The position numbers and the translations under genes are program-made. From the NCBI RefSeq assembly GCF_003790525.1, contig NZ_CP033635.1: 64,000 bases of DNA. One strand, 5' to 3'. This DNA is from Escherichia coli (GTDB taxonomy: Bacteria > Pseudomonadota > Gammaproteobacteria > Enterobacterales > Enterobacteriaceae). Under the pieces are notes generated by a model. It searched no databases and was not told the DNA's origin. It saw nothing but the letters and a program-made list of their open reading frames with translations. Position 1 is the first letter of the stretch. Each line of letters starts with the position of its first letter. This document shows positions 21,113 through 21,318 of this stretch, one piece after another.

Positions 21113-21139
21113 AGGGCTGGAGTCATCCGGCCCTTTTTT
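21113..21139 (+). terminator. Rho-independent terminator after bamC
   Basis: agggctgg-agtcat-ccggccct hairpin followed by TTTTTT. Confidence 0.6.
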
Positions 21140-21149
21140 CTGATATGAT

Positions 21150-21165
21150 ACGCAAACGTGTGCGT
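21150..21165. promoter_or_regulatory. PurR operator-like box upstream of purC
   Basis: ACGCAAACGTGTGCGT resembles the PurR box (ACGCAAACGTTTTCNT-type). Confidence 0.5.
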
Positions 21166-21211
21166 CGGCAGAAAAACGCGATTTTAGCGGTAATTCGCAC
21201 GAAATTTGTTT

Positions 21212-21253
21212 GTCGGACGTAGGTCGGATAAGGCGTTCACGCCGCATCCGACA
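21212..21253. repeat. REP element in the bamC-purC spacer
   Basis: gtcggacgtaggtcggataaggcgttcacgccgcatccgac has the REP signature. Confidence 0.65.
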
Positions 21254-21318
21254 AAACATCTGGCACACCAGACAGCAATAGATTTTAAAACGTTAATTCA
21301 CACCCAGGAGTGATAAAG

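Follow-up and report, generated by a model that had tools for sequence, protein, structure and literature searches.

The promoter, the PurR operator and the upstream terminator of purC are established parts of the pur regulon that have genome-scale experimental support in Escherichia coli K-12. The purC entry in supplementary file 2 of one study gives a single K-12 transcription start site (TSS), at 2595803 on the minus strand, with a 5′ untranslated region (UTR) of 163 nt and an upstream sequence ending in ...TGATATGATACGCAAA (Kim 2012, PMC3415461). In Salmonella Typhimurium SL1344, two independent datasets place the primary purC start at ...CTGATAAGATACGCAAA, with a UTR of 125 nt, and report one secondary TSS further upstream, within bamC (PMC3293720, PMC4643027). 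ChIP-chip of PurR in K-12 located the purC site, ACGCACACGTTTGCGT, 154 nt before the start codon, with an enrichment of 2.08 with adenine and 1.52 without, and many PurR sites in that work fall in core promoters (Cho 2011, PMC3159470). For the preceding gene, the bamC portion of a set of K-12 Term-seq tables lists ‘primary’ 3′ ends at 2597798 and 2597799 (Adams 2021, PMC7815308).

The junction considered here lies in a 64,000-nt stretch of E. coli DNA (the window), in which the local gene order is dapA, bamC, purC and ypfJ. The bamC (nlpB) coding sequence (CDS), present in the ORF list and annotated as bamC in E. coli SMS-3-5, K-12 and other genomes, spans 20072-21106 on the plus strand, with its TAA stop codon at 21104-21106. 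The CDS of purC, which encodes SAICAR synthetase, spans 21319-22032 on the same strand according to the ORF list and to the annotation of matching genomes, and an ATG is indeed found at 21319, where the original prediction had placed its start. By sequence comparison, the segment 21000-21420 is 100% identical to SMS-3-5 and 98.3% identical to K-12. With the K-12 control region it shares the dapA-bamC-purC gene order, the 16-bp operator, the extended -10 element, the TSS base and the terminator with its mapped 3′ end, while the differences are confined to strain-level SNPs: the terminator loop carries a G in SMS-3-5 and an A in K-12, the base of the stem of the REP element reads GTCGGAT here and TTCGGAT in K-12, the hairpin here being 3.4 kcal/mol stronger, and two further SNPs lie 3′ of the REP. 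The block formed by terminator, promoter and operator differs from K-12 at only 1 of 58 nt, the near-identity on which any transfer of TSS, ChIP and Term-seq data from K-12 and Salmonella to this strain depends. The purC promoter, the PurR operator and the bamC terminator are already known, and apart from strain-level SNPs the locus is the K-12 control region, its single REP being an ordinary one. A terminator, a PurR-like box and a REP had all been predicted in the bamC-purC spacer, and each is there, at or very near the position proposed for it. It is probable, and we hold this with good confidence, that the junction is the standard E. coli arrangement of a terminator, a PurR-repressed promoter and a leader REP, with a K-12-like anatomy and the REP as a passenger, so that what is gained beyond annotation is small.

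The bamC intrinsic terminator (21113-21139, plus strand), supported by a terminator scan, RNA folding and K-12 Term-seq, begins 7 nt past the bamC stop codon and consists of a hairpin (21113-21134) with a stem of nine pairs, six of them G-C, and a 4-nt loop, followed by TTTTTT running to 21139. Its predicted RNA fold has an energy of -17.0 kcal/mol (z = -5.2), equalled by none of 200 shuffles. The hairpin is kept in 20 genera, and two of its six consensus pairs display double-sided compensatory changes (C-G/U-G/U-A and G-C/A-U). The two 3′ ends that the bamC portion of the K-12 tables lists at 2597798 and 2597799 translate into window positions 21139 and 21138, the last bases of the U-tract, and this 3′ end at the final T, together with the scan, bears out the terminator that had been proposed at these coordinates (PMC7815308).

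Two bases past the end of the U-tract (21139) begins an extended -10 element, TGaTATGAT (21141-21149, plus strand), read from the sequence and situated 7 nt upstream of the mapped TSS. With a TGn motif, a hexamer close to TATAAT and a TSS some 7 nt downstream, the purC promoter reads as one of the sigma-70 extended -10 type. Its best -35 hexamer, GAGTCA (21120-21125), matches the consensus at three of six positions across an 18-bp spacer and lies inside the terminator hairpin; it is because this -35 is poor that sigma-70 consensus scanning misses the promoter, a strict two-hexamer scan of 20900-21500 returning no promoter-like site. The segment CTGATATGAT, which belongs to the promoter, is common to Escherichia, Citrobacter, Pseudocitrobacter and others. 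Promoter and terminator overlap, the -35 falling within the hairpin and the U-tract serving as promoter spacer, and the mapped bamC 3′ end at 21139 is only 17 nt from the purC TSS. The SNP in the terminator loop (G here, A in K-12) raises the -35 match from 2/6 to 3/6.

The UTR length and the sequence ending in ...TGATATGATACGCAAA given by the K-12 purC entry together place the start on A21156 (plus strand), the seventh base of the operator, and the SL1344 start is the homologous base. Transferred in this way from K-12 and Salmonella, the TSS would lie upstream of the REP and not downstream of it, and the proposal that the REP sits between the operator and the start codon, possibly within the purC 5′ UTR, is supported by this mapping. 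The untranslated leader deduced from the sequence and the K-12 TSS (Kim 2012) spans 21156-21318 on the plus strand (163 nt) and contains a Shine-Dalgarno (SD) sequence, AGGAG (21306-21310, plus strand), 8 nt before the ATG, the GGAG of which is invariant in the spacer alignment of relatives. Compared with E. albertii, all 58 nt of the terminator-promoter-operator block are unchanged, where 4-fold sites differ at a rate of 0.28, and by this comparison the block is strongly constrained.

The PurR operator, ACGCAAACGTGTGCGT (21150-21165, plus strand), covers -6 to +10 relative to the TSS and agrees with the palindromic consensus ACGCAAACGTTTGCGT, which has a central CG, at 15 of 16 positions. In a scan of all 64 kb it is the only match with at most one mismatch; one other site falls within three mismatches, having exactly three, where about 0.75 matches with up to three would be expected by chance. 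The K-12 ChIP-chip site ACGCACACGTTTGCGT is the reverse complement of this box and lies at the same distance from the ATG, so the PurR-box-like sequence that had been noted at 21150-21165, one mismatch from the consensus, is the K-12 purC site itself and the operator does not lie elsewhere (PMC3159470). PurR probably occupies 21150-21165 in this strain as well, the 16-mer bound in K-12 being identical and equally distant from the start codon. Across more than 20 enterobacterial genera, the operator that precedes purC is invariant or has a single change, appearing either as the identical 16-mer or as the symmetric variant ACGCACACGTTTGCGT, and here it overlaps the core promoter and the TSS (as transferred from K-12 and Salmonella) of a purine gene.

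Between operator and SD, the leader carries an insert, the anatomy and taxonomic distribution of which emerge from alignments. Spacers were compared with those of 80 other species, the Salmonella and Klebsiella sequences being taken from PLSDB plasmid records that are in fact pieces of chromosome. In Citrobacter, Enterobacter, Leclercia, Pseudocitrobacter and Phytobacter, the spacer measures 106-111 bp, contains no REP and has an identical operator 49-52 nt from the ATG, whereas in Escherichia it measures 211-212 bp with the operator 152-153 nt from the ATG; the purC leaders of Citrobacter and Enterobacter are about 60 nt long. Alignment with relatives reveals a 103-bp block specific to Escherichia. 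An 80-bp core containing the REP (21201-21280, plus strand), which is absent from Citrobacter, Enterobacter and other relatives, is flanked by imperfect direct repeats of 21 and 23 bp whose start-to-start spacing is 103 bp. The left copy, GATTTTAGCGGTAATTCGCAC (21180-21200, plus strand), was found by a repeat search and corresponds to a sequence that is single-copy in Citrobacter and other relatives. The right copy, GATTTTAAAACGTTAATTCACAC (21281-21303, plus strand), identified by the same search and by alignment, adjoins the SD and is the constrained one, with 0 of 23 differences relative to both E. albertii and the Escherichia lineage L003, and its CGTTAATTCACACCCAGGAG is identical in Citrobacter. 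In local alignment the two copies agree at 18 of 23 positions, a score attained by 7 of 5000 shuffles.

Of 5426 complete E. coli genomes, 5424 contain this core at full length, and E. albertii has it too, which means that a comparison with REP-less loci is possible across genera and not within E. coli. It is made up of one 34-nt REP unit and 46 nt of other sequence, and since the flank that follows the REP occurs once per genome, only the REP part of the insert is repetitive; the idea that the insert is a larger mobile unit was rejected on the same ground. Transposition of the RAYT/IS200 type is not expected to leave flanking repeats of 21/23 bp. Relative to E. albertii, the non-REP flanks of the core differ at 10 of 46 sites (p = 0.21 against the 4-fold rate of 0.28), as if they evolved at about the neutral rate.

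Other genera help to date the insert. A Salmonella Infantis sequence (CP150497.1; L082 708-881) contains the two repeat copies and each end of the core, separated by a 48-nt middle without an intact REP. This implies that the duplication and the insert predate the split between Escherichia and Salmonella, after which either Escherichia gained the REP or Salmonella lost half of it. In a two-gene tree the branching order of Escherichia, Salmonella and Citrobacter is unresolvable (distances 0.142-0.144), and the short leader of Citrobacter may for that reason be ancestral or the product of a deletion between the repeats. A metagenome scan with a Salmonella-specific promoter string gave no match. 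The promoter-operator design can do without the REP: Citrobacter and the other short-spacer genera combine an identical operator with a REP-free spacer, and in Salmonella transcription begins at the same TSS in a locus that has no intact REP.

In K. pneumoniae (NZ_CP093490.1; L083 660-887), an element of about 127 bp lies directly 3′ of the PurR box, and it fits ERIC/IRU, since the median E. coli genome contains 13 full-length relatives of it. Other extra leader sequence, hairpin-forming by eye and at about the same position, is seen upstream of purC in Kluyvera (spacer of 173 bp), Enterobacter sp. BIGb0383 (L021; 141 bp), Shimwellia and Siccibacter (128 bp) and K. aerogenes (142 bp), the spacers examined being those of loci L018, L021, L030, L031 and L084. 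Different inserts at about one leader position across genera mark the leader as a place where small palindromic inserts recur and are tolerated. The PLSDB records CP150497.1, NZ_CP093490.1, LR134122.1, NZ_CP134663.1 and NZ_OL790696.1 all carry the chromosomal bamC-purC locus and some measure 4-5 Mb, so these are probably whole chromosomes, or pieces of them, that were registered as plasmids; the bamC of LR134122.1 is broken up into a pair of ORFs, nlpB_1 and nlpB_2.

The REP unit itself (21219-21252, plus strand), recognized by consensus match, inverted repeat and folding, consists of GTAG (21219-21222) followed by a 30-nt hairpin (21223-21252) that matches the REP consensus at 28 of 30 positions (two mismatches, with 0.00 such matches expected). 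A REP had been predicted at 21212-21253, and a REP is present; the canonical unit is shorter at its 5′ side, the start at 21212 taking in an upstream 7-nt partial arm, GTCGGAC. Located outside genes, between the CDSs of bamC and purC, the unit would occupy +64 to +97 of the 163-nt leader, with 66 nt between its end and the ATG. The inverted repeat has 14-nt arms that are 86% complementary, and the RNA folds into a bulged hairpin whose top stem is GGCG/CGCC (-18.8 kcal/mol, z = -5.8). This is a single REP and not a BIME or REPIN, because the spacer contains one REP match and one inverted-repeat pair, GTCGGAC being only a partial arm. The REP portion is found at a median of 9 places per E. coli genome by megablast and at least 40 by blastn.

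Several further candidates in the spacer were discarded. The only notable Rfam match, to naRNA4 (RF02564, a REP325-derived 77-nt model), scores 37.8 bits where the gathering score is 59.5 and is a generic REP resemblance, and no Rfam family reaches its gathering threshold anywhere in the window, so that the leader holds no riboswitch or known sRNA at that threshold. All candidate leader-peptide ORFs lack an SD and start with GTG or TTG, and the longest (35 codons, 21206-21313) runs across the REP. On the minus strand, a terminator-like hairpin (21274-21257) depends on SNPs almost confined to SMS-3-5-like strains (just 21 records are at least 99% identical over 21253-21300, and K-12 and E. albertii differ in its stem) and is probably incidental. 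An 83-aa minus-strand ORF (21017-21268) extends over the 3′ end of bamC as well as the terminator and the REP and was treated as spurious.

These elements outline a simple working of the junction, in which dapA-bamC transcripts would end at the intrinsic terminator, with its U-tract closing at 21139, and the purC promoter would start two bases on, its extended -10 (TGaTATGAT) and the weak -35 in the terminator stem directing initiation at A21156. PurR bound to its corepressor, hypoxanthine or guanine, would cover the -10 and +1 from its operator at -6 to +10 and so block initiation, a steric mode of action that is the most likely one given where the operator lies. These termination, promoter and operator steps are supported by K-12 and Salmonella mapping combined with sequence identity. 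The resulting transcript would have a 163-nt leader, about 100 nt of which represent an old insert (the 80-bp core and its 21/23-bp imperfect direct repeats) that in Escherichia bears one intact REP hairpin, from +64 to +97. Control by PurR does not need the REP, which we infer to be neutral: a fixed passenger tolerated by the leader, outside PurR control, with at most a modest effect on the decay of leader RNA.

Whether the passenger is as inert as this is the main point on which other explanations bear. One, in line with the original suggestion, gives the REP hairpin a function within the leader, that of altering the fate of purC mRNA, through which Escherichia would tune PurC output after transcription, by blocking 3′-to-5′ exonucleases and leaving a leader fragment of about 97 nt, by providing or masking entry sites for RNase E or RNase III, or by binding a protein such as HU. 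The near-universal presence of the core in E. coli (5424 of 5426 genomes) and its occurrence in E. albertii are in keeping with this, as is the preservation of the hairpin in all four Escherichia lineages examined (-18.8 kcal/mol here, -15.4 in K-12, -14.5 in E. albertii and -14.4 in L003), although the same energies show stem strength drifting between lineages, with a mismatch at the stem base in K-12. Only 2 of the 34 REP positions differ from E. albertii, which is fewer than expected from the pooled 4-fold rate of 0.28 (binomial p = 0.001) or from purC alone (p = 0.04), and the contrast with the core flanks (10/46) is borderline (Fisher p = 0.06). Such conservation above flanks and 4-fold sites could reflect selection on the hairpin, but it could equally reflect homogenization among REP copies, that is, concerted evolution among hundreds of them. 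Elsewhere, REPs reportedly stabilize upstream mRNA. However, we know of no 5′-to-3′ exonuclease in E. coli, so a hairpin at +68 would shield only a non-coding 5′ fragment and not the coding region. Moreover, the whole leader has a minimum free energy of -49.9 kcal/mol (z = -1.6), with nothing beyond the REP hairpin, and in this predicted fold the SD is left unpaired with the REP. Relatives share the promoter, operator and SD and manage with a leader of about 60 nt, and literature searches found no experiment on the purC leader. With slender evidence on either side, a functional REP is unlikely, while being the likeliest alternative to a passenger.

A broader form of the same idea, which we regard as doubtful, makes the REP-bearing insert a lineage-specific post-transcriptional control element and the purC leader a recurrent landing pad, with the repeats pointing to a route of insertion other than RAYT. 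If true, selection would have preserved an intact REP hairpin in Escherichia, Salmonella having let its REP decay and Citrobacter having none; palindromic repeats of different kinds would have been recruited to tune PurC, namely REP in Escherichia, ERIC in K. pneumoniae and other hairpins in Kluyvera and Siccibacter; and the flanking direct repeats of about 22 bp would indicate an insertion mechanism distinct from RAYT-type transposition. Whatever the answer, nature offers a series in which promoter, operator and SD are identical and the leader is about 60 nt in Citrobacter and Enterobacter, 125 nt without an intact REP in Salmonella, 163 nt with a REP in Escherichia and, as estimated from the distance between box and ATG, about 180 nt with an ERIC-like element in K. 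pneumoniae, which makes it a ready-made test of the influence that small palindromic repeats placed in a 5′ leader may have on mRNA fate.

More remote is the notion that the leader is a zone of premature termination (attenuation), Rho-dependent or REP-associated, in which the C-rich, G-poor stretch after the REP would act as a rut site and give purC a second layer of control. Long 5′ UTRs are frequent Rho targets, attenuation associated with BIMEs or REPs is said to occur, and the purC leader is both 163 nt long and untranslated; within it, a 60-nt window starting at 21245 has a C/G ratio of 2.43, at about the 99th percentile of 60-nt windows in the 64 kb. Against this, the post-REP stretch is only 28% C and mainly A-rich, and the 66 nt from REP to ATG are short for Rho to load before ribosomes engage. 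The Term-seq supplementary tables list the bamC terminator end and, in the part searched, no 3′ end under purC, which is weak evidence given that purC is repressed in rich medium (Adams 2021). Taken together, these points make attenuation improbable.

It is still harder to credit that the REP acts as DNA, whether by being bound by gyrase, IHF or DNA polymerase I or by insulating the bamC and purC units from each other topologically. BIMEs bind gyrase and IHF, and the element does lie between two co-directional transcription units; however, this is a single REP with neither a BIME partner nor a second REP within the spacer, no IHF-type L motif was seen, and the boundary between the units would be at 21139-21156, which puts the REP inside the purC unit. 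Finally, with nothing found in its favour, virtually no weight attaches to a true purC promoter 3′ of the REP, with the REP as untranscribed spacer and the upstream PurR box acting at a distance, since the sole start in the K-12 purC entry sits 163 nt upstream of the ATG (Kim 2012), the Salmonella primary start is at the homologous base and its secondary one is further upstream in bamC, and the scan of 20900-21500 offers no promoter-like site.

Set against known systems, the purC REP, taken as a passenger, is conventional in make-up and less so in its setting. Like other E. coli REPs, it matches the consensus at 28 of 30 positions, has a 5′ GTAG and a bulged hairpin and belongs to a family with dozens of related copies per genome. 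Typical REPs, however, lie at 3′ ends or between convergent genes, whereas this one is in a 5′ leader, is a singleton without an inverted partner and sits within a unique 80-bp insert that has direct repeats of about 22 bp on either side. The window contains a second REP (25908-25937, one mismatch to the consensus), adjoining a REP-like unit (GTAGGTCTGATAAGAC...) within 25870-25945, just past a plus-strand gene that ends at 25865, and this one looks like the usual BIME context, unlike the leader REP.

The intercistronic REPs of malE-malF, which are said to stabilize the mRNA upstream of them, share with the purC REP a transcribed hairpin of similar stability that could block 3′-to-5′ exonucleases. 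They differ in protecting an upstream coding region, while upstream of the purC REP there would be only 67 nt of non-coding leader, so that a mechanism of the malE-malF type would not stabilize the purC CDS. The ERIC/IRU elements of transcribed intergenic regions represent another repeat family of another length, and the E. coli window spacer has no ERIC, but the insertion of such an element in the K. pneumoniae purC leader, at an equivalent place, parallels the Escherichia REP insert.
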